DNA from: Verrucomicrobiota bacterium
Lineage (GTDB): Bacteria > Verrucomicrobiota > Verrucomicrobiia > Opitutales > Cerasicoccaceae
Reading direction: 5' to 3'
Length of the DNA: 64,000 bases
Assembly: GCA_039818205.1 (NCBI GenBank)
Contig: JBCBUK010000003.1
Coordinates: 224,001 to 288,000 of the forward strand
Both the position numbers and the translations under genes were made by a program. Positions 25,453-34,062 of this stretch are shown piece after piece (position 1 is the stretch's first letter; every line of letters starts with the position of its first letter). The notes under the pieces were generated by a model. It ran no database searches. It saw only the letters and a program-made list of their open reading frames with translations, and had not been told where the DNA came from.

Positions 25453-28400
25453 TTATTGAAAATCTGCAGTGGATAACTGGAGTGCTTGATTGGTCATTTT
25501 TGCCAAGTCACGGTGTAAACTATCCCAGTCACTGTTGATATTCGATTCTCGAATGGATTCGATCAGTGACACGATTGAATCGTTTGGAAACATGCGAGCC
25601 GCTGGTGTCATGTCGTGGAGAATGTCGCGGATTTGATCCTGATCCTGTGTTTTTGACGCTGCTTCAATTCGATCGCAGAATTCGACTAGTGTGGCGCGCA
25701 GTTCGTCCATCAACTCACGGAGCTTATCCGGGTCTCCTTCGGCCAGGTAGGCGAGTGCGTTCCAAGCGTCATTTTTAGGTGCCGAAGGCTTAGGTGGTTT
25801 AGTGGATTGTTTGCGTCCGGTTTCGACCGCGGTCAGAAGCTCGGTGGGCGAGAACGGTTTGGGGACAAAACCGGTGACGCCGGCTTGGACGATGCGGGGG
25901 CGGTCGTTGTCGGCGACATAGGCGCTCATTGCGATAATTGGGCGGGCTTTGTGGGCCTCGATGGCTCGAATGTCGCGGGCGAGCTCGACTCCGTTTTTGT
26001 CCGGGAGGTTGACATCGACAAGAATGAAGTCCCACTCGCGATCGTTGAGACGTTCCATCGTTTCCTGGGCGGTGCCCGTCATGGTCACCGACGCACCGAC
26101 GTTTTCAAGAATACCTCGGACGACCATTTGATTGTAGGGCTCGTCCTCAACGACCAGGACAATTGAACCGCGCAGGGCTTCTCCATTGGGATTCTCCTGA
26201 TGGGGCTGACTCTCGCTGAGTGGCGCCAAGGTTTGCATGGGGACCTGGACGCGAAACTGAGTTCCGCTTGAATCGGTTTTCTCGAGACTCAACTTGCCAC
26301 CCAGGAGCTTGCTCAGGCGATCTGCGATGCTTAGTCCGAGGCCAATGCCCTTGGTCATCGAGGTGACATTGGAGCCCTGCTGAAACTGCTCAAATATCTT
26401 ATCCTGAGCCTCGGGTGGGATGCCTTTGCCGGTATCCTCGACGAGAAAATCCAACCGAATGCGGTCGTTGCGGTCAGTGGCTTCCCAAAATGCATGGACA
26501 CTTACGGATCCGTCATCGGTAAACTTGATCGCATTGGAGGTCAGGTTGAAGAGAATCTGTTTGAGTTTACCGGAGTCGCCATGGAGCGGCGGGCAAGAGT
26601 CGAAGTGGCGAATCACTTCCAATCTCAGGCCTTTGTCGGTCGCCAATCGACTATGGAGTGAGTTCAACTCGCCGAGGACATTCTCCAGCTCAAATGATCC
26701 TTCGATAATTTTGACCTGTCCATTCTCGATCGCCGCGAAGTCGAGCATGCCGTCCAGTAGGATCTTCAACTGCTCGGCGGTCGAAAGCAGGTGGTTCATC
26801 CGATTGTCCGGCTTCTTCTTACGCTCATCAATCATCAGGTGAGCCAGCCCAACGATTCCGTTCATCGGATTGCGGATCTCGTGGCTTACGTGCGCGAGGA
26901 AGCGATTCTTTGATGTGTTGGCCTGCGCAAGGCGGATGTTCATACGTTCGAGTTCAATGGTGCGACTGCGAACGGCATCTTCCAATGCGACGTTGGCGGT
27001 GCGCAGGCGTCGGGTGCGCCACTGGACAAAGGTAAATACGAGGGCGATGCCGATAGCCGTGAAGACCGCGTAGGCGAGGGCAGTCCGATACCATGGTGGT
27101 AAGACGGTGAACGGTATCGCCGCCACAAGCTTGGTCGGTTGGCCATCGATAATGCCGCGCACCTCAAACTGATAATCGCCTTCCCGAATGTTGGTGTATT
27201 CCTTGAACGGGTTTGAGTTCGGCTTACTCCAATTGCTTTCAAAGCCCACTAGGCGAGTCTGGTACTCCATGGATTTCGTGCCGTAATAGGGTAACGAAAA
27301 TTCAAAGGCGGCTTGCTGCAATGGATAGCTTATTTTTTCCATGGACTCGGCTCGTTGCTCCTGCGTTTGTCCTTCGTCATCAACGAAAATCTCGTTGAAG
27401 AATTTTGCTTCCGAAATGATCGGTCGCCGGTTGAGGTCGTTCGGTACCTTGCTAAGATCTTCCCGAATGATTCCACCGCTGCCACCAAACCACGCCGTGT
27501 TATTATCTTGCTCGACAAAGATACAGTGTAGCGGTGATAGGACATTTACGCCGTCGGAAGCGACTTCGGTGTAGGTCGGCGCTCCATTCTCGGCCGACCT
27601 ATCGATCTTCGCCAATTGGTTTTTCTCTAAGTCCGCGTCCGGGTAAGCAATCCAAACAGCTCGGTCATTGTTAAAGAAATTGGTCGAGTAAGGGTCTTTG
27701 CCGAGATCGCTTGGCGAGTCGGGGACTTGTCTCCATTCGAGGTCAGAATGACTTTGATAGAATACGCCAGCATTGGTTATCGCCAGTAGTACCCCGTCGA
27801 GGTTGGTGGTATATGCCCAGATGAATGCTTCCCCGTTCTCGGGGTTGTTGACGGGCTCGTAAGTTGGGGTGAGCTCAAGGTCCTCAATGTCGCGTGCCAT
27901 GGCACGCTGTAAGCCTGCATCAACCGACCCAAAGTAATAGTAGCTGTCATAGCCATAATCAATGGTCCACATGTTTCCGGGAAATGGCTTCTCGGCAATG
28001 ATCTCAATGGTGTCATCCACCCACTGGCCGATCATAAAGTTTTTGTAGGAGGTGATGTAGAGCAGGTCTGCTGTCTCAGAAAAGCTAACGGTGCTGATGT
28101 CTTGGTTGTACTCGAAGAGCTTTACCAATCCATCTCCCGATGTTAGATCGATTCCGTCTGCTCGGCAGAATAGGACACCTTTGTCGGTTCGCTCCATCGT
28201 CCATCCAGGAGAGCGGTTTTCTCCCAAACGATCCCATGAATGCGGAAGTAACTGTTCTTCTCGTGGGCGCAGCTCATAAATTCCAGTGAACCCACCAGCA
28301 TACTTGCGCCCTTCAAACTCATTGATGTCTAAGATGTATCCCGAATCGAGACCTTGATCATTGTTGAACTTAGTCCACGACTTCGGGTTTGTTATGCAGC

Positions 28401-29388
28401 TAATTCCGCTTTCGTGGCATGCCCAGATGTTCCCATCTTTGTCCTCAAACAAATCGAAAACGATATTGCTAAGCAGTCCTTCATTCTCCGTCCATCGAGT
28501 GACGAATTTACCGTCGCGGTCGAAAATGAGGATTCCTAAACTGTGGATCGACGAAGCAAAAAGACCATCTTCAAGTTCAATTGTTTTATATATTAACTGC
28601 TCTTTTGCAGCAGGTGTTATGTCGGTTTTAAAAGCCTCAAGTTTGTTGTCTTCAAACTTGTAAAAACCATTCCGAAAGGTGCTAAGAATTTCTACGCCTT
28701 CATTTGGTTTCGAAATGAAATTGATGGCATCATCGCCAATCTCTTCTTTGTCTATGATGACCGGAAACCCTTTTTCGATTATTTGCCGTATACCAACGCC
28801 GCGTTGGCTAATCAGTGGGCCTGCCTGAGAGTTGTGCAGGGTAATGCGTCGCGCAGTGGGAAAGGGGAAGACTTCGATTTCACCATCGGTATATAGCACC
28901 AGGTGTTCTTCGGCAACAAACGCAATAATTTCGCCGATCGGTACTACCTGCCATATCGTTCCTAGTTGCAGGTCGGGATTTGGGAGTTCAGGGATTAAGG
29001 AGTGATAGTCACTGATCTTTCCGTTTGAGATATCGAAGTATCCTAACTCGTTATTCCCTCCAATCCATATTCGATCGCCATTGCCAATGTATAGGGTCCT
29101 GACGGTCGAGCCCGTCCTGTGTTGTCTCCAGGTCACGCCATCAAACTCTAACAAGCCATCGTTGTTAGCAAAGAACAGACGGCCATCGTCGCTTTGAGCG
29201 GCTTGCCAGTTGCGTCCGTCCGAACGAGTCCTCTCTGCTGGGAAGGATTGTATTGTGGGAGCTCCAAGGTCGCGCGCAAAGCACGAACCGGCAATGGTCT
29301 GCCAGATGATAAGCAGGCCCCAAAATATGGGTGTATGCTGTCCTTTTAAAAAAGTCACCGTCTTGCTACTTTGATCGCGTAGTCTCAT
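25453..29388 (-). CDS. hybrid sensor histidine kinase (periplasmic beta-propeller + Y_Y_Y, TM, HisKA, HATPase, REC, Hpt-like)
   Basis: Propeller repeats (DGRLFFANNDGLLEFDG, EDKDGNIW), Y_Y_Y (YQTRLVGF...YTNIREGDYQFEV), TM (WYRTALAYAVF), H-box (SHEIRNPMNG), N/G boxes (NAIKFT, DTGKGI, GIGLGL), receiver (VVEDE...DVNLP...KPF) and C-terminal ILHDM. Confidence 0.95.
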   Translation of the reverse strand: MRLRDQSSKTVTFLKGQHTPIFWGLLIIWQTIAGSCFARDLGAPTIQSFPAERTRSDGRNWQAAQSDDGRLFFANNDGLLEFDGVTWRQHRTGSTVRTLYIGNGDRIWIGGNNELGYFDISNGKISDYHSLIPELPNPDLQLGTIWQVVPIGEIIAFVAEEHLVLYTDGEIEVFPFPTARRITLHNSQAGPLISQRGVGIRQIIEKGFPVIIDKEEIGDDAINFISKPNEGVEILSTFRNGFYKFEDNKLEAFKTDITPAAKEQLIYKTIELEDGLFASSIHSLGILIFDRDGKFVTRWTENEGLLSNIVFDLFEDKDGNIWACHESGISCITNPKSWTKFNNDQGLDSGYILDINEFEGRKYAGGFTGIYELRPREEQLLPHSWDRLGENRSPGWTMERTDKGVLFCRADGIDLTSGDGLVKLFEYNQDISTVSFSETADLLYITSYKNFMIGQWVDDTIEIIAEKPFPGNMWTIDYGYDSYYYFGSVDAGLQRAMARDIEDLELTPTYEPVNNPENGEAFIWAYTTNLDGVLLAITNAGVFYQSHSDLEWRQVPDSPSDLGKDPYSTNFFNNDRAVWIAYPDADLEKNQLAKIDRSAENGAPTYTEVASDGVNVLSPLHCIFVEQDNNTAWFGGSGGIIREDLSKVPNDLNRRPIISEAKFFNEIFVDDEGQTQEQRAESMEKISYPLQQAAFEFSLPYYGTKSMEYQTRLVGFESNWSKPNSNPFKEYTNIREGDYQFEVRGIIDGQPTKLVAAIPFTVLPPWYRTALAYAVFTAIGIALVFTFVQWRTRRLRTANVALEDAVRSRTIELERMNIRLAQANTSKNRFLAHVSHEIRNPMNGIVGLAHLMIDERKKKPDNRMNHLLSTAEQLKILLDGMLDFAAIENGQVKIIEGSFELENVLGELNSLHSRLATDKGLRLEVIRHFDSCPPLHGDSGKLKQILFNLTSNAIKFTDDGSVSVHAFWEATDRNDRIRLDFLVEDTGKGIPPEAQDKIFEQFQQGSNVTSMTKGIGLGLSIADRLSKLLGGKLSLEKTDSSGTQFRVQVPMQTLAPLSESQPHQENPNGEALRGSIVLVVEDEPYNQMVVRGILENVGASVTMTGTAQETMERLNDREWDFILVDVNLPDKNGVELARDIRAIEAHKARPIIAMSAYVADNDRPRIVQAGVTGFVPKPFSPTELLTAVETGRKQSTKPPKPSAPKNDAWNALAYLAEGDPDKLRELMDELRATLVEFCDRIEAASKTQDQDQIRDILHDMTPAARMFPNDSIVSLIESIRESNINSDWDSLHRDLAKMTNQALQLSTADFQ

Positions 29389-29432
29389 TGAAGATTACAC
29401 TAATCAACATCCAACACACAAAAGCATCAATA

Positions 29433-29552
29433 ATGAAAAAAATACTCACTGCGTTCTTCGAAACCGTAAAATACAATCTCGGTTATCGTTCCAGCGCTGA
29501 TCTACCCGCAGTAGAAACCAAGGCATGGCCTTCGTTCCCTTGCGGATTCTAA
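29433..29552 (+). CDS. candidate RiPP precursor peptide (39 aa)
   Basis: MKKILTAFFETVKYNLGYRSSADLPAVETKAWPSFPCGF. The ATG follows an A-rich, unstructured leader like other genes here. It is co-oriented with and 97 nt upstream of the YcaO gene, and has a Ser/Cys-containing C-terminal segment. Confidence 0.75.
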   Translation: MKKILTAFFETVKYNLGYRSSADLPAVETKAWPSFPCGF

Positions 29553-29589
29553 GACCGGGTTAAGCAAACGTCATTACTGCTGCAAAGCG

Positions 29590-29622
29590 GTGCCGCTGCC
29601 CCTTCAGACCGGGCAGCGGCAC
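29590..29622 (+). other. 12-bp GC-rich stem-loop between the precursor and YcaO genes
   Basis: Perfect stem GTGCCGCTGCCC-CTTCAGACC-GGGCAGCGGCAC. Only TT follows, so it is not a full U-tract terminator on +. Confidence 0.8.
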
Positions 29623-29649
29623 TTAAATAAACAAAACAAATAAATCCTA

Positions 29650-30570
29650 ATGTTAAAATCCATGAATCTGGCTCCATTGAAGTTTCGCGATGTGTTGGCA
29701 AGCGATGGTGGCCCAATCCGTACGGTTGATGTTGGTACGGAAACGATTCTGGGCCGGGACCAATATTCGGCCCATGCCTATTTATGTGAGGACCTTTACG
29801 TTAAGCGACAGACGTCTGCCGTAATCACCAAGATGCCAGACGGCGCGGGAACCGCATCGGACCCAAACACCGCAAAGTTTCGAGCAATCTCTGAAGCTCT
29901 GGAGCGCTGGGCGTTCGGGCAATGCTCTATCATTGAAAGCTATAAGAAGGAGCTCGGATTCGACTATGATCCGACGACCAATGGGATGGGAGCCTTCCCC
30001 GGGCTATTTGATACGCCAGCGCGCCTTGCCGCCGAGCGCGAGGCGATTGAGCGTCATTGCTTGGTTCTTTGGTGGGAAGGCTTTCTCGATGTAACGAGTA
30101 TCGCGGACCCATTTCCCGGTGTTCGGGGAATCCAGATCGAAAATCCCTTTAGCGATGATATTGTCGTGTTGCTTTGGCAGTTTGTTGACGATCGTTTTTA
30201 TATCTATGGTTTCGGTCTGGGAACGACGATGGACGATGCCTGCTGGCGGGCGGGCGTTGAAATGTATCGCACCGGTAAGATTACTCGATCGCACTATGCG
30301 AAAAACGATTCAATCGACGAGGCCTACTTCAGTGAGTTTGAACACCTCTTCGAGAAGCGAATCCTTTTCTATTCACGGCCCGATGGTTTTATTCAACTGC
30401 TTGAGCGTTTGGAAACACGACCGATAAAGCGGTATCCTGGCTCGCCGGACATTATTGTGGATCGCAAGGTTACCGGCCCCTGGGATCGTTTTGTAACGGT
30501 GTGGCGCGTTGTCTATCGACAGCCTAGTCGTGAATTCGCCAGTGACCGCGCCGACTATTTCTTTTGGTGA
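29650..30570 (+). CDS. compact YcaO-family enzyme (306 aa)
   Basis: YcaO ATP/Mg motifs in the expected order: GAGTASDPNTAKFRAISEALER, TTNGMGA, ARLAAEREAIERH and GFGLG...ACWRAGVE. Confidence 0.85.
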   Translation: MLKSMNLAPLKFRDVLASDGGPIRTVDVGTETILGRDQYSAHAYLCEDLYVKRQTSAVITKMPDGAGTASDPNTAKFRAISEALERWAFGQCSIIESYKKELGFDYDPTTNGMGAFPGLFDTPARLAAEREAIERHCLVLWWEGFLDVTSIADPFPGVRGIQIENPFSDDIVVLLWQFVDDRFYIYGFGLGTTMDDACWRAGVEMYRTGKITRSHYAKNDSIDEAYFSEFEHLFEKRILFYSRPDGFIQLLERLETRPIKRYPGSPDIIVDRKVTGPWDRFVTVWRVVYRQPSREFASDRADYFFW

Positions 30571-30618: not shown

Positions 30619-33372
30619 TTAGAACTGCTTGCTTATGGCACCATAGACAAAGCGGTTCTGAATAGAGTATAGGGAAGTGTCGTAGCCGTCGGCGAAAGCG
30701 CCGGCGGCGAACGGCGGCGATTCATCGAAGACATTGTCAACGCCGACCGTAACAGTTGTGCCATCTAGAATCTCGCTTTCGGTGTTCTTGAACTCGTAGC
30801 TAGCCACCAGGTTTACCTTCACGTACTCCTCAACCGTACGCGGGACTCCTCCAAGGGTGAAGCTGCTGTCATCATCATAGGATCCAATGTATTGAACGGT
30901 AGCTCCTATGGACGCATCGTATACAAATAGGTAGACGCTGGCCAAGCCCTTCCAGCGAGGGATCGCACCTGGGCTCAAATTGTTTGAACGTTTATCGACG
31001 AATCCGCCAGCAAATGAGAGTTCTCCAACACCGGGAACTTCGGCATCATAGCTTAGCACTTGGTTGACTCCGATCGACGCCAAGGTTCGGATGTTTTCCG
31101 TGATCGAGTAGTCATATTCAATGCGGTAGTCCAAGCCTTGGGTTGTGATTCGCGAGGCGTTGAAATAACGGGAGTTCACAAAGATGACGGGTCCCATGGG
31201 GCCAGCGCGCACGACGTCGTTGGGATTGTTTTGGTCCAAGGTAAACTGTGCACCATTGGCAATCGCGTCATCAACGTTCAGGTAGTAGTAGTCCACTCGG
31301 AAGGCGAGGCCTTCAACCGGCTCGGGTTCCCAGATGACACTAGCCGAAACGCTTTGTGAGGTTTCCGGATCGAGTGACGGGTTTCCACGTAGGAAGGTCG
31401 GGATAGGGGTTCCCGGTGCCGTTGCTCCCGTTGGGTCGACGAGGATGGGAAAGTCAAAGGTTTGGCTGGCATAGGATTCATACAAGGTCGGCGCACGAAA
31501 GCCGGTGCTGTACGAAGCGCGGAGTGTGACCGTTTCTACCGGCTTTAAGCGAAGCGCAACCTTCCATGAAAGATTGCTGTAACCGTTTGGCGCAGATAGA
31601 CCGGTGACGGGGTCATTGCCGTTGTCATCAAATGTTTCGAACCGCAGCCCGAGACTGAGATCCAAGTTCTGTGCGAGGGGAACATCGTGGTGGGGAGCGA
31701 GGATCGGCACGTATGTTTCACCAAAGAAGGCGAAGACATTGCGCTGCCCACTAAAGGGTTGATTGAAGCCTGCGGCTCCGAGGTTCTGGCCGGTTGACCA
31801 AAGCACATCGGGTGTGTTGTCGATGGACTCGTAACGGTATTCGAAACCAATGGCACCATCTAATGCGCCTGCCGGTAGGTCTATGATCTTACCCGACACT
31901 TTGGCGTCATAGGTAAGCATGTTTTCGAATAGATCATTGTGTGGCTCAACGGCTGCTGTTTGAAGTGCCGTGTAGTTGTTAAAGCTGATTCCCGCATTGT
32001 TCCCTGCAATGACTCGGGAGTAGGGGTTGAATGCACCGCTGTTGATAAACGGAACCAGGATACGAGCGTCGGCAACGCCGGAAAAATCAAAATCGGTCTG
32101 AGTTTGAGTGTAGAGGACGGCGGTGTCCCATTCCCAGCGGTCTTCGATCAAGCCGCGGGCTCCTCCTACGAGGCGAAAGGCACTGCGTTGAATGTCCGCT
32201 TCCAGATTGCCGAGCTCAAAGCTGCGATAGTTTACATTGATAACGGATGCGGGGCCCACCGGGTTGTGCGGACTGTTTTGCACGGCGGTAAAGAGCGGGC
32301 TGGGTGCGTTGCCGGGCAGGGGGCCAAAAGCAGACCATGGTGCCGGGGCAAGTGCATTTGCTTGGAACTGATAAGAGTAGAGCGCGTCACCATAAAGCGT
32401 AACCTGGTCCGTTAAGTCGTGTTCGATCGCAGCAAAGCCACTGGCGATTTTCAACGCAGGTATGTCGGGGGCATATGCGTTAAAGTTAAACGCGTCAGTA
32501 TTCTGATTGTATGGCTGGTAATCGGCACCAGAAGTTGGGAATGGAATGCCCGGGCTTAGCAGTCCGTCCAACACACCGCCGCCCGTAAAGATCGTCGCAT
32601 GACCTGGGAACGTTGCGCTTCCACGATTCGTTCCACCGAGCGGAATAAAATTTGTGGTTGCCGAGAGGTCTCGGTCTCGAGCCCAAATTACTTGTTGGTC
32701 ATAGTAGCTACCCAAGAGAGTGAGGTGGGTGTCTTCGTCAACTTGGAAGCCGCCAATCAAGGAGTATTGTTGGGTCTGCCCACCGCCTTGGGTCGTATTC
32801 CCATACAAGCCATCGAGTCGGACCCCTTCGAATCGGTTATCGAGTCCGATATTCACGACACCGGCAATGGCATCGGAGCCATAAGTAGTACTCGCTGTTT
32901 CTAGCAGGATATCAATGTCATTGATAGCGGCCTGGGGGATTAAATTGATGTTGGCAAAGCCGCCGGGCTCTAATCCGAATGCGCTGTTGCCACCCGCTCG
33001 TCGACCATTGATTAAGGTAAGCGTTCTTAGGGTTCCTGCGCCACGAATGTTGGGTGACGAAGAGCCAGTTCCCCCGTTACTATCATTAGACGTATTCATG
33101 GCCCCAAAGAAAGACGGTTGCAGGCGTAATATCTCGATGGGTCTTTGGGTGCCGCTCAAAAGCATATCGTCACGATCGAGCTCGAAGAAGGTTTCGACTG
33201 GATCTCCTTCAACAGGGGTAAACAAAGAGCCCGTCATGTAGACGGGTTCTAATTCAAGCAAGTCTTCTTCATCGGTTGAGACGGGGGTTACTTGGGCATC
33301 TGCAACAAAGGCCGCCGAAAAACAGATAAAAGAGGCAAGTAGGGTTGATTTTTCGGGAGAAGGCGTCACCAT
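30619..33372 (-). CDS. TonB-dependent outer-membrane receptor
   Basis: Signal peptide, TonB-box-like EPVYMTGS, plug motifs NIRG...RTLTLINGRR and YGSDAIAGVVNI, TGFRAPTL, GNPSLDPETS, GVDNVFD and a C-terminal Phe. Confidence 0.95.
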   Translation of the reverse strand: MVTPSPEKSTLLASFICFSAAFVADAQVTPVSTDEEDLLELEPVYMTGSLFTPVEGDPVETFFELDRDDMLLSGTQRPIEILRLQPSFFGAMNTSNDSNGGTGSSSPNIRGAGTLRTLTLINGRRAGGNSAFGLEPGGFANINLIPQAAINDIDILLETASTTYGSDAIAGVVNIGLDNRFEGVRLDGLYGNTTQGGGQTQQYSLIGGFQVDEDTHLTLLGSYYDQQVIWARDRDLSATTNFIPLGGTNRGSATFPGHATIFTGGGVLDGLLSPGIPFPTSGADYQPYNQNTDAFNFNAYAPDIPALKIASGFAAIEHDLTDQVTLYGDALYSYQFQANALAPAPWSAFGPLPGNAPSPLFTAVQNSPHNPVGPASVINVNYRSFELGNLEADIQRSAFRLVGGARGLIEDRWEWDTAVLYTQTQTDFDFSGVADARILVPFINSGAFNPYSRVIAGNNAGISFNNYTALQTAAVEPHNDLFENMLTYDAKVSGKIIDLPAGALDGAIGFEYRYESIDNTPDVLWSTGQNLGAAGFNQPFSGQRNVFAFFGETYVPILAPHHDVPLAQNLDLSLGLRFETFDDNGNDPVTGLSAPNGYSNLSWKVALRLKPVETVTLRASYSTGFRAPTLYESYASQTFDFPILVDPTGATAPGTPIPTFLRGNPSLDPETSQSVSASVIWEPEPVEGLAFRVDYYYLNVDDAIANGAQFTLDQNNPNDVVRAGPMGPVIFVNSRYFNASRITTQGLDYRIEYDYSITENIRTLASIGVNQVLSYDAEVPGVGELSFAGGFVDKRSNNLSPGAIPRWKGLASVYLFVYDASIGATVQYIGSYDDDSSFTLGGVPRTVEEYVKVNLVASYEFKNTESEILDGTTVTVGVDNVFDESPPFAAGAFADGYDTSLYSIQNRFVYGAISKQF

Positions 33373-33429: not shown

Positions 33430-34062
33430 ATGAATATTGTCGTTGTCGAGGATCAAAGCCTTTTTCGGCAGCTTATGGTTAAAATGTGTGCTGAACGTTA
33501 CAATGTGGTAGGCGAAGCATCGGACGGTCAGCAGGCATTAGACGTATGCCGTGAGTTGAAGCCTGATGTTGTCTTGTTAGATATCCGCATACCTGAGCCC
33601 GACGGTATCTCCGTCGCGCAGACTTTATTGGAAGAGCAGCCGACGCTTCGCATTCTGGCGGTCTCGGCGAAGATGGATACGGTCACCGTTTTCCGTTTAT
33701 TAAAATCTGGTGTCCATGGTTATGTTAACAAGTTTTCTGACCAGTTGGATACCGTGATGGATGCCCTTGAGAACCTGTCTCGGGGCGAGCCGTATTTCTC
33801 CGAATCGTTCGATCAAGTTAAGAACGAGATCAAGCGTGATCCTATGGCGTTCTATAAGATCCTTTCGAACAAGGAACTTGAACTGCTTCCGCTGTTTTCT
33901 AAGGGGCTTGATGACGAGGCAATCGGCATCAAGTATAAGCTCAGTGCCAACACGGTTCGTTGGCATCGACGCAACATCATGAAGAAGCTTGAGATCCATG
34001 CGACAACCGAACTAATGCGCTATGGCATTGCTCATGGTTTCTGGGACCTTGCTGGCAGTTAG
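33430..34062 (+). CDS. NarL/LuxR-family response regulator
   Basis: Receiver (VVVEDQ...VVLLDIRIP...GYVNK) and LuxR HTH (LSNKELELL...SANTVRWHRRNIMKKL). Confidence 0.94.
   Translation: MNIVVVEDQSLFRQLMVKMCAERYNVVGEASDGQQALDVCRELKPDVVLLDIRIPEPDGISVAQTLLEEQPTLRILAVSAKMDTVTVFRLLKSGVHGYVNKFSDQLDTVMDALENLSRGEPYFSESFDQVKNEIKRDPMAFYKILSNKELELLPLFSKGLDDEAIGIKYKLSANTVRWHRRNIMKKLEIHATTELMRYGIAHGFWDLAGS

Follow-up and report, generated by a model that had tools for sequence, protein, structure and literature searches.

In the agr groups of Gram-positive bacteria, the signal peptide and its sensor co-vary as pherotypes, and the agr system as a whole (AgrD/AgrB/AgrC/AgrA) unites a modified ribosomal peptide, a single maturation enzyme, a membrane histidine kinase and a response regulator. 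As covered in a review, peptide-kinase quorum sensing has been described mainly in Gram-positive bacteria (PMC7790227), and phage phiCDHM1 carries an agr3 locus with a precursor and a kinase (PMC3901668; PMC7790227). The phage peptide systems treated in the cited reviews have cytoplasmic receptors and come from Bacillus phages; in one of them, arbitrium (AimP/AimR/AimX), the peptide gene of a temperate phage lies near the lysis-lysogeny switch and the peptide-receptor pairs are diverse (PMC7790227; PMC13389391). Among peptides modified by YcaO enzymes, the azol(in)e RiPPs (McbBCD, LynD/TruD and the products of bottromycin YcaOs) are described as combining the YcaO fold and its ATP motifs with precursors that consist of a leader and a C/S/T-containing core, occasionally repeated (PMC7136475). 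Bufferins and other RiPPs made by MNIO enzymes, as far as the cited accounts go, have Cys-rich precursors, Sec-like leaders and Gram-negative hosts (PMC11626156; PMC12452194).

The locus described here lies in a 64,000-nucleotide stretch (hereafter, the window) of a verrucomicrobial genome and recalls each of these systems in part. It encodes a 1311-aa hybrid sensor kinase (25453..29388, minus strand), a candidate receptor with a Reg_prop/Y_Y_Y periplasmic sensor, HisKA, HATPase and REC domains and a weakly matched Hpt domain; divergently from it, a 39-aa precursor peptide (29433..29552, plus strand) followed by a short stand-alone YcaO-fold enzyme of 306 aa (29650..30570, plus strand); a TonB-dependent receptor convergent with the YcaO gene (30619..33372, minus strand), which is a candidate importer; and a NarL/LuxR-type response regulator (33430..34062, plus strand), the candidate output. 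The precursor is separated by 44 nt from the annotated start of the kinase and by 97 nt from the YcaO gene, for which the database calls the start at M5, giving 302 aa instead of 306 aa. We assign a probability of about 0.62 to the reading that this locus specifies a peptide pheromone which is matured by the YcaO, probably carries azolines and is perceived by the linked kinase, peptide and sensor forming strain-specific pairs. The observations are the linkage of the genes, a YcaO fold complete with ATP motifs, the leader-core anatomy of the precursor, the co-divergence of core and sensor and the presence of prophage copies; from these we infer modification, export, binding and regulation. Compared to agr, the chemistry is that of a YcaO, the kinase is a beta-propeller hybrid and the host is a diderm; no AgrB/AgrC homology was found, Pfam domains at the locus being YcaO and Reg_prop/Y_Y_Y/HisKA, and the Cys expected of a thiolactone is not conserved. 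The cassette belongs to none of the agr, arbitrium, LAP/cyanobactin, thioamitide, bottromycin and bufferin families, although its proposed working resembles that of agr and of the agr genes of phiCDHM1. A literature search, with subscription journals and bioRxiv supplements outside its scope, returned no description of the cassette; tables from RiPP mining may list such loci unnamed.

A sequence-only reading had singled out the 39-aa ORF as an unannotated precursor for the adjacent YcaO, and its translation was reproduced at 29433-29552 of the plus strand, including the octapeptide tail that harbours the sole Cys as well as both P-S and P-C. The supposed amphipathic helix at the N-terminus did not stand out upon comparison with shuffled sequences, 14.6% of which equal its hydrophobic moment of 0.59, a value thus not above chance. 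The whole genome contains seven precursor genes, i.e. six beyond the window copy, and it is comparison with these six that marks the ORF as coding: relative to the copy on contig C13, 14 codons carry synonymous differences and 8 non-synonymous ones, a pattern which indicates coding constraint. All seven aligned close homologues are 39 aa long and share the conserved leader motif YNxGxR and a variable core ending in P-[S/T]-[F/W/Y]-P-[C/S/T], with M1, K3, Y14, N15, G17, R19, P33 and P36 as the only invariant positions. PCGF, one of the two motifs for whose conservation the sequence-only reading had proposed to look, had to be abandoned, position 37 being C, S or T among the aligned close homologues. 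The A/C-rich 30-nt stretch directly upstream of the ORF (29403..29432, plus strand) recurs base for base ahead of the C13 and C29 prophage copies, in which it doubles as coding sequence for the C-terminus of the kinase. Between the precursor and the YcaO gene lies a GC-rich 13-bp hairpin lacking a U-tract (29589..29623, plus strand; z -3.73, 0/200 shuffles), at which a terminator search made no call and which may raise the level of precursor mRNA over that of enzyme mRNA.

The pairing of precursor and enzyme is found in other Opitutales as well, within a group of bacteria from water and soil. At least 90 YcaO homologues were found, mostly of 290-330 aa, and those with names are all from Verrucomicrobiota, the nearest named one among the matches listed being from Cerasicoccus (60-63%). 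A GTDB scan yielded 313 relatives, and all of the best 80, which were retrieved, are verrucomicrobial by title. The flank comprises 400 nt or more in 74 of these loci, and in 72 of the 74 a precursor profile based on 43 seeds chosen by eye matches within 500 nt 5' of YcaO, as expected if the ORF is a leader-core precursor for the adjacent enzyme. A lack of similar ORFs, which the sequence-only reading had named as grounds for refutation, was not what the loci showed. Short ORFs upstream of YcaO homologues are equally regular among unseeded loci (31/33 precursor-positive); in L025, the precursors lie farther upstream, and L068 has none. All precursor matches among 20,913 scanned small frames adjoin YcaO, and in a reverse search of 401 genomes, YcaO and a divergent kinase were present at all 28 precursor loci examined, several of which come from seed genomes. 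Across 401 Opitutales genomes, YcaO is found in 68, a precursor match in 52 and both in 50. One of the two precursor-only genomes, G403, has a broken YcaO beside the precursor, and the match in the other, G311, is false and was rejected as the signal peptide of another protein; a second precursor match on contig C1 of G002 was discarded because of an internal stop. Within the best 80 of the 313 relatives, 63 of 68 loci have the sensor kinase, 34 of the 36 that are fully covered have the NarL-type regulator and only 13 of 80 have the TonB receptor; the neighbour clusters, read by eye, show no recurrent gene for a protease, an exporter, immunity or tailoring. The Opitutales cassette combines a divergent beta-propeller hybrid kinase with a precursor, a short YcaO and a NarL-type regulator, joined at some loci by a TonB receptor.

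Sequence comparison places the 306-aa protein at the margin of the YcaO superfamily: Pfam recognizes it with an E-value of 5e-5, below the cut-off, a PDB sequence search gave E-values of 0.7-0.8 only, and identity to solved YcaOs is 12-17%. Its predicted model (pLDDT 95), however, matches five YcaO structures, with Z-scores of 16.6 to McbD (rmsd 4.4, 266 aligned), 15.9 to the Methanopyrus kandleri YcaO (MkYcaO), 15.6 to LynD and 14.6 and 11.9 to two others, the next unrelated match being at 6.1; Foldseek likewise gives a probability of 1.00 to YcaOs. In the family alignment, E82, E85, G112 and E134 are invariant and S81, R86, E131 and R135 are present in at least 83 of 86 sequences; these residues, within conserved SExxER, GxxA and ExxER motifs, are presumably the ATP/Mg-binding positions of YcaO. 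The modelled fold, taken together with these motifs, confirms the gene as encoding a YcaO-fold protein with the ATP motifs.

It is the only YcaO of the short stand-alone family in the genome, and the family differs from the azol(in)e enzymes in its size of about 300 aa, the lack of an E1/RRE or dehydrogenase partner and its setting within a signalling cassette. TIGR03603 has no match in the genome and TIGR03605 a single unlinked one below the cut-off, and clustering across the 80 loci (best 80 of 313) revealed neither partner as a recurrent neighbour. A C-terminal PxP is given as typical of azoline-forming YcaOs (PMC7136475; 10.1101/2025.07.11.664356); here, PxP is absent and the tail is aromatic (DYFFW in the window and in 27/86 sequences overall), its last residue aligning to the chain ends of McbD and LynD (396 and 775). 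This departure bears on the possibility that signalling proceeds as proposed but that YcaO performs another reaction, producing an amidine or a macrocycle or carrying out MusD-like ATP-dependent cleavage. Stand-alone bottromycin YcaOs are described as forming a macroamidine (PMC7136475). Amidine chemistry, which the sequence-only reading had also entertained, keeps a foothold because the YcaO is without a PxP tail, and cleavage could be accommodated by the presence of the YcaO peptidase structure 7u58 among the Foldseek matches and by a cassette devoid of a protease. Amidine formation has gained no positive support. No second YcaO of this family was found in the genome, tailoring genes do not recur in the neighbour clusters of the 80 loci (best 80 of 313), and bottromycin and streptamidine precursors are of the follower type, whereas the conserved part is N-terminal here. 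TfuA (PF07812) is absent from the genome (99.97% complete), with the positive control detected in Methanosarcina, which argues against thioamidation only.

The chemistry can also be judged from the composition of the cores, for which we considered 69 precursors, that is, 74 unique main precursors minus five that could not be split. Their N-terminal leaders are conserved and their cores hypervariable; Cys occurs in 66/69 cores and P-[C/S/T] in 62/69. PC is observed 53 times versus 12.3 +/- 3.2 in shuffled cores and P[CST] 105 times versus 52 +/- 6, whereas CP, expected 12 times, is never observed. In the window clade, where P33 and P36 do not change, position 34 is always S/T and position 37 always C/S/T, so that Cys and PCGF are not essential features; this interchange would be the pattern expected of a cyclodehydratase substrate. 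Because the post-Pro positions swap among C, S and T and Pro-[CST] is enriched family-wide, azoline formation by YcaO on post-Pro Ser/Thr/Cys is favoured on compositional grounds, and since neither PCGF nor its Cys is conserved, an azoline fits better than an amidine. The strictness of the interchange at the two positions, along with the enrichment, makes the other YcaO chemistries quite improbable. Precursors with two to four tandem repeated cores are found in L041, L043, L044, L121 and L124, the last with CTWPCE repeats, similar to multi-core cyanobactin precursors.

The prevalence of Cys might alternatively point to a RiPP metallophore or metal-stress peptide, for which bufferins and methanobactin are the models: the azoline peptide would bind metal, the TonB receptor would import it and the two-component system would sense the metal. 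Besides the Cys content, CxxC or CxxxC occurs in 29/69 cores, and the best NCBIfam matches of the TonB receptor are haem/siderophore receptors, although all are below the cut-off. Furthermore, 61/69 leaders are hydrophobic and Sec-like, as described for bufferins (PMC11626156). On the other hand, the cores of several close homologues are Cys-free (PSWPS, PTYPT), the TonB receptor is confined to the minority of loci noted above, core and sensor diversify jointly between near-identical strains, and the prophage copies adjoin repressors. As presented in the sources on bufferins (PMC11626156; PMC12452194), those peptides depend on an MNIO (DUF692) enzyme, display conserved Cys motifs and have a role with copper, in contrast to the YcaO and the hypervariable, kinase-linked cores seen here. 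We consider the metallophore explanation to have little chance of being correct.

The joint variation of core and sensor is one line of evidence for the pheromone reading. Between L033 and L035, YcaO is 100%, the kinase domain 98% and REC 99% identical, whereas the sensors share only 42% and the cores differ; for L050 and L061, the corresponding values are 97% for the kinase and 48% for the sensor. Conversely, L013 and L014 have near-identical cores and sensors that are 97% identical. A second allele of the window locus itself is found on contig C54, where the leader (70/72), the intergenic region (44/44) and kinase codons 1-36 (102/108) are conserved compared to the divergent core (31/48) and sensor (359/555). 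In sequencing run X1, possibly that of the source sample, the depth of the C54 core variant is about 5 versus 22-30, and C54 therefore probably represents a minor strain. A 53-nt inverted repeat at the end of this contig (G000:C54:602-654 and 842-894) suggests a chimeric join there, the allele itself being backed by run X1. For the TonB receptor (30631-33087), too, this run contains a second allele, which is divergent, has a depth of 14.9 and shares short flanking segments, so the importer may also differ between strains. Core and sensor hence diverge together within near-identical flanks in a manner reminiscent of pherotypes, as in agr, although the comparison of 51 kinases offers few informative pairs of sequences from kin that are not independent. 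Because sensors evolve fastest in general (mean identity 21% versus 41% for the kinase domain), this co-divergence is suggestive only.

Were the pheromone reading correct, the stand-alone YcaO would bind the leader and cyclodehydrate the post-Pro Ser/Thr/Cys residues (S34 and C37 in the window) to unoxidised oxazoline or thiazoline. The peptide would then be exported and trimmed, with a Sec-like leader in most of the family and a polar one in the window clade. It could reach the periplasm of kin, in some lineages via the TonB receptor, and bind the beta-propeller of the hybrid kinase, which would signal to the NarL-type regulator; the latter probably feeds back on the precursor promoter. A candidate regulatory site, the palindrome TACC-N8-GGTA, is located 5' of 35/65 non-redundant precursors, mostly at -65, -85 or -108, compared to frequencies of 1.8% in shuffled sequences and 2.0% in 1164 windows from the same loci, with a matrix trained on the same regions as were scored. 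In the window, the weak candidate ACC-N8-GGT (29316..29333) aligns with the site of L003 but scores below 6.5 bits, and the box is absent from the prophage modules.

These modules account for five of the seven precursor genes (on C1, C13, C29, C30 and C33), which sit among phage genes, including integrases (C1, C13, C29), tail genes (C29), excisionases (C13, C33) and phage replication genes. In all five modules, the precursor lies 3' of a sensor kinase gene of the module itself, in the same orientation, and is convergent with a repressor-like gene, while YcaO is missing from its vicinity; in the three modules that are not cut by a contig end, the kinase is in turn preceded by a stand-alone REC gene. 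The prophage kinases retain the HisKA His, and of the non-phage proteins in the genome they match the window kinase best (281 bits versus at most 105). C13 and C29 encode identical peptides and kinases that are only 49% identical. The repressors differ in N-terminal architecture, which is RHH or HTH and may or may not include S24, yet all five have in common an unnamed C-terminal domain, the profile of which matches only these proteins and a sixth one on C28, not the S24 repressor on C22; the ESM Atlas contained no usable match to this domain. The C28 repressor (G000:C28:1-1025; L154) is truncated where the contig stops, in sequence that hardly differs from that of C13/C29, and is probably another module collapsed in assembly. 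Overall, this one genome contains an unusually large number of related prophage early regions (C1, C13, C22, C28, C29, C30 and C33), several with repressors of the RHH rather than the HTH type.

Partial support comes from a second genome, G405, in which a precursor with the core AYPTIMTV, similar to AFPSVMTV of the host cassette in the same genome, is divergent from a related sensor; genes for a portal and a terminase lie alongside, and no YcaO is visible nearby. A further prophage-type kinase, P0118, was detected in a Logan contig. The complete REC-kinase-peptide module was not found in the 400 other genomes or in IMG/VR, in searches several of which are insensitive. Scans of IMG/VR with the C29 kinase, the YcaO alignment, P0118 and two peptide DNA patterns gave no match. 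Among the 401 genomes, the REC profile matched this genome only, as did the prophage kinase profile, which, with two candidates scored per genome, recovered 2/5 of the genome's own copies. A search with the prophage-kinase alignment returned six generic kinases, none with a precursor nearby, and one for homologues of the C29 sensor gave weak partial matches only. The single match of a metagenome pattern scan (L143) encodes no peptide ORF and was judged to be due to chance.

Since the prophages lack a YcaO while encoding a receptor and precursors that resemble those of the host, they would use the host enzyme, and the signal may pass through the stand-alone REC protein to the common C-terminal domain of the repressors. 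We therefore put forward, tentatively and at somewhat less than even odds, that in a Gram-negative phylum temperate phages make the choice between lysis and lysogeny by means of a peptide matured by the host YcaO, a phage-encoded periplasmic kinase and a REC relay to a dedicated repressor domain, an idea prompted by the gene arrangement in one genome along with the partial support from G405. In phiCDHM1, as reported, AgrB is present and AgrA absent (PMC3901668; PMC7790227), as opposed to the lack of a maturase and the presence of a REC protein beside the repressor in the prophages described here. In the arbitrium system of Bacillus phages, according to the reviews, the peptide is unmodified and its TPR receptor cytoplasmic (PMC7790227; PMC13389391), whereas in the present case the peptide is presumably modified, the sensor is that of a periplasmic kinase and the enzyme would be supplied by the host; no AimR-type TPR receptor was encountered, the gene 5' of the phage peptides encoding a membrane histidine kinase.

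Nisin-like regulation provides the model for a self-inducing bacteriocin, of which the prophage copies would be competition morons. Although the combination of a RiPP with a two-component system, the variable cores and the carriage by phages would suit such a role, immunity, dehydrogenase and exporter genes are not recurrent, the core comprises only about 8-10 aa, and it is a kinase, not a resistance gene, that co-varies with the core; we regard a bacteriocin as highly unlikely. Somewhat better placed, yet still unlikely, is a peptide of the MgrB/SafA kind that stays anchored in the membrane and modulates the kinase of the same cell, YcaO modification tuning the binding, with no signal passing between cells. 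Hydrophobic leaders in most of the family, the invariant linkage to the kinase and the lack of an exporter or protease in the cassette agree with this explanation, as does the 1-nt overlap between the kinase stop and the precursor start in C13 and C29. However, the leader of the window clade is too polar for a membrane anchor (best 12-residue hydropathy of 0.76 versus a family median of 2.3) and not Sec-like, the tandem repeated cores imply released units and the presence of a TonB receptor in linkage implies import from the surroundings.

If the pheromone reading holds, the cassette represents a candidate communication system for Verrucomicrobiota, given its YcaO in 68 of the 401 Opitutales genomes sampled, and the YcaOs a compact, partner-free family with very permissive cores that could be of use in peptide engineering. 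Phage and host peptides being near copies, phages could then eavesdrop on and spoof an azoline-peptide quorum system of the host, and one genome with seven precursor alleles and six or seven receptors offers a ready test of phage-host signal sharing.

Several loci depart from the standard cassette. Tandem pairs of precursor-like ORFs are found 5' of YcaO in L020, L025, L028, L034, L048, L049, L052, L055, L057, L066 and L070, the second ORF having the same leader and a core that is almost always Cys-free (Cys in 1/13 unique sequences); it is possible that this second precursor is an antagonist, a decoy or a leader acting in trans. A second, more divergent YcaO is encoded in G140 (C6), G170, G207, G259, G286, G304, G310 and G316, and one such locus, L150, has its own precursor, kinase and regulator. 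The YcaO genes of the cassettes in G403 (C10; L149) and G156 (C2) are broken by frame breaks or stops, possibly representing signal-blind cheaters or assembly errors. L030 contains a truncated, leader-only precursor copy about 1.1 kb downstream of the YcaO start. In G008, a degenerate second precursor (G008:C1:3736846-3736959; L147 8826-9038) lies about 1 kb from homologues of the TonB receptor and the regulator, which are located far from the YcaO cassette.
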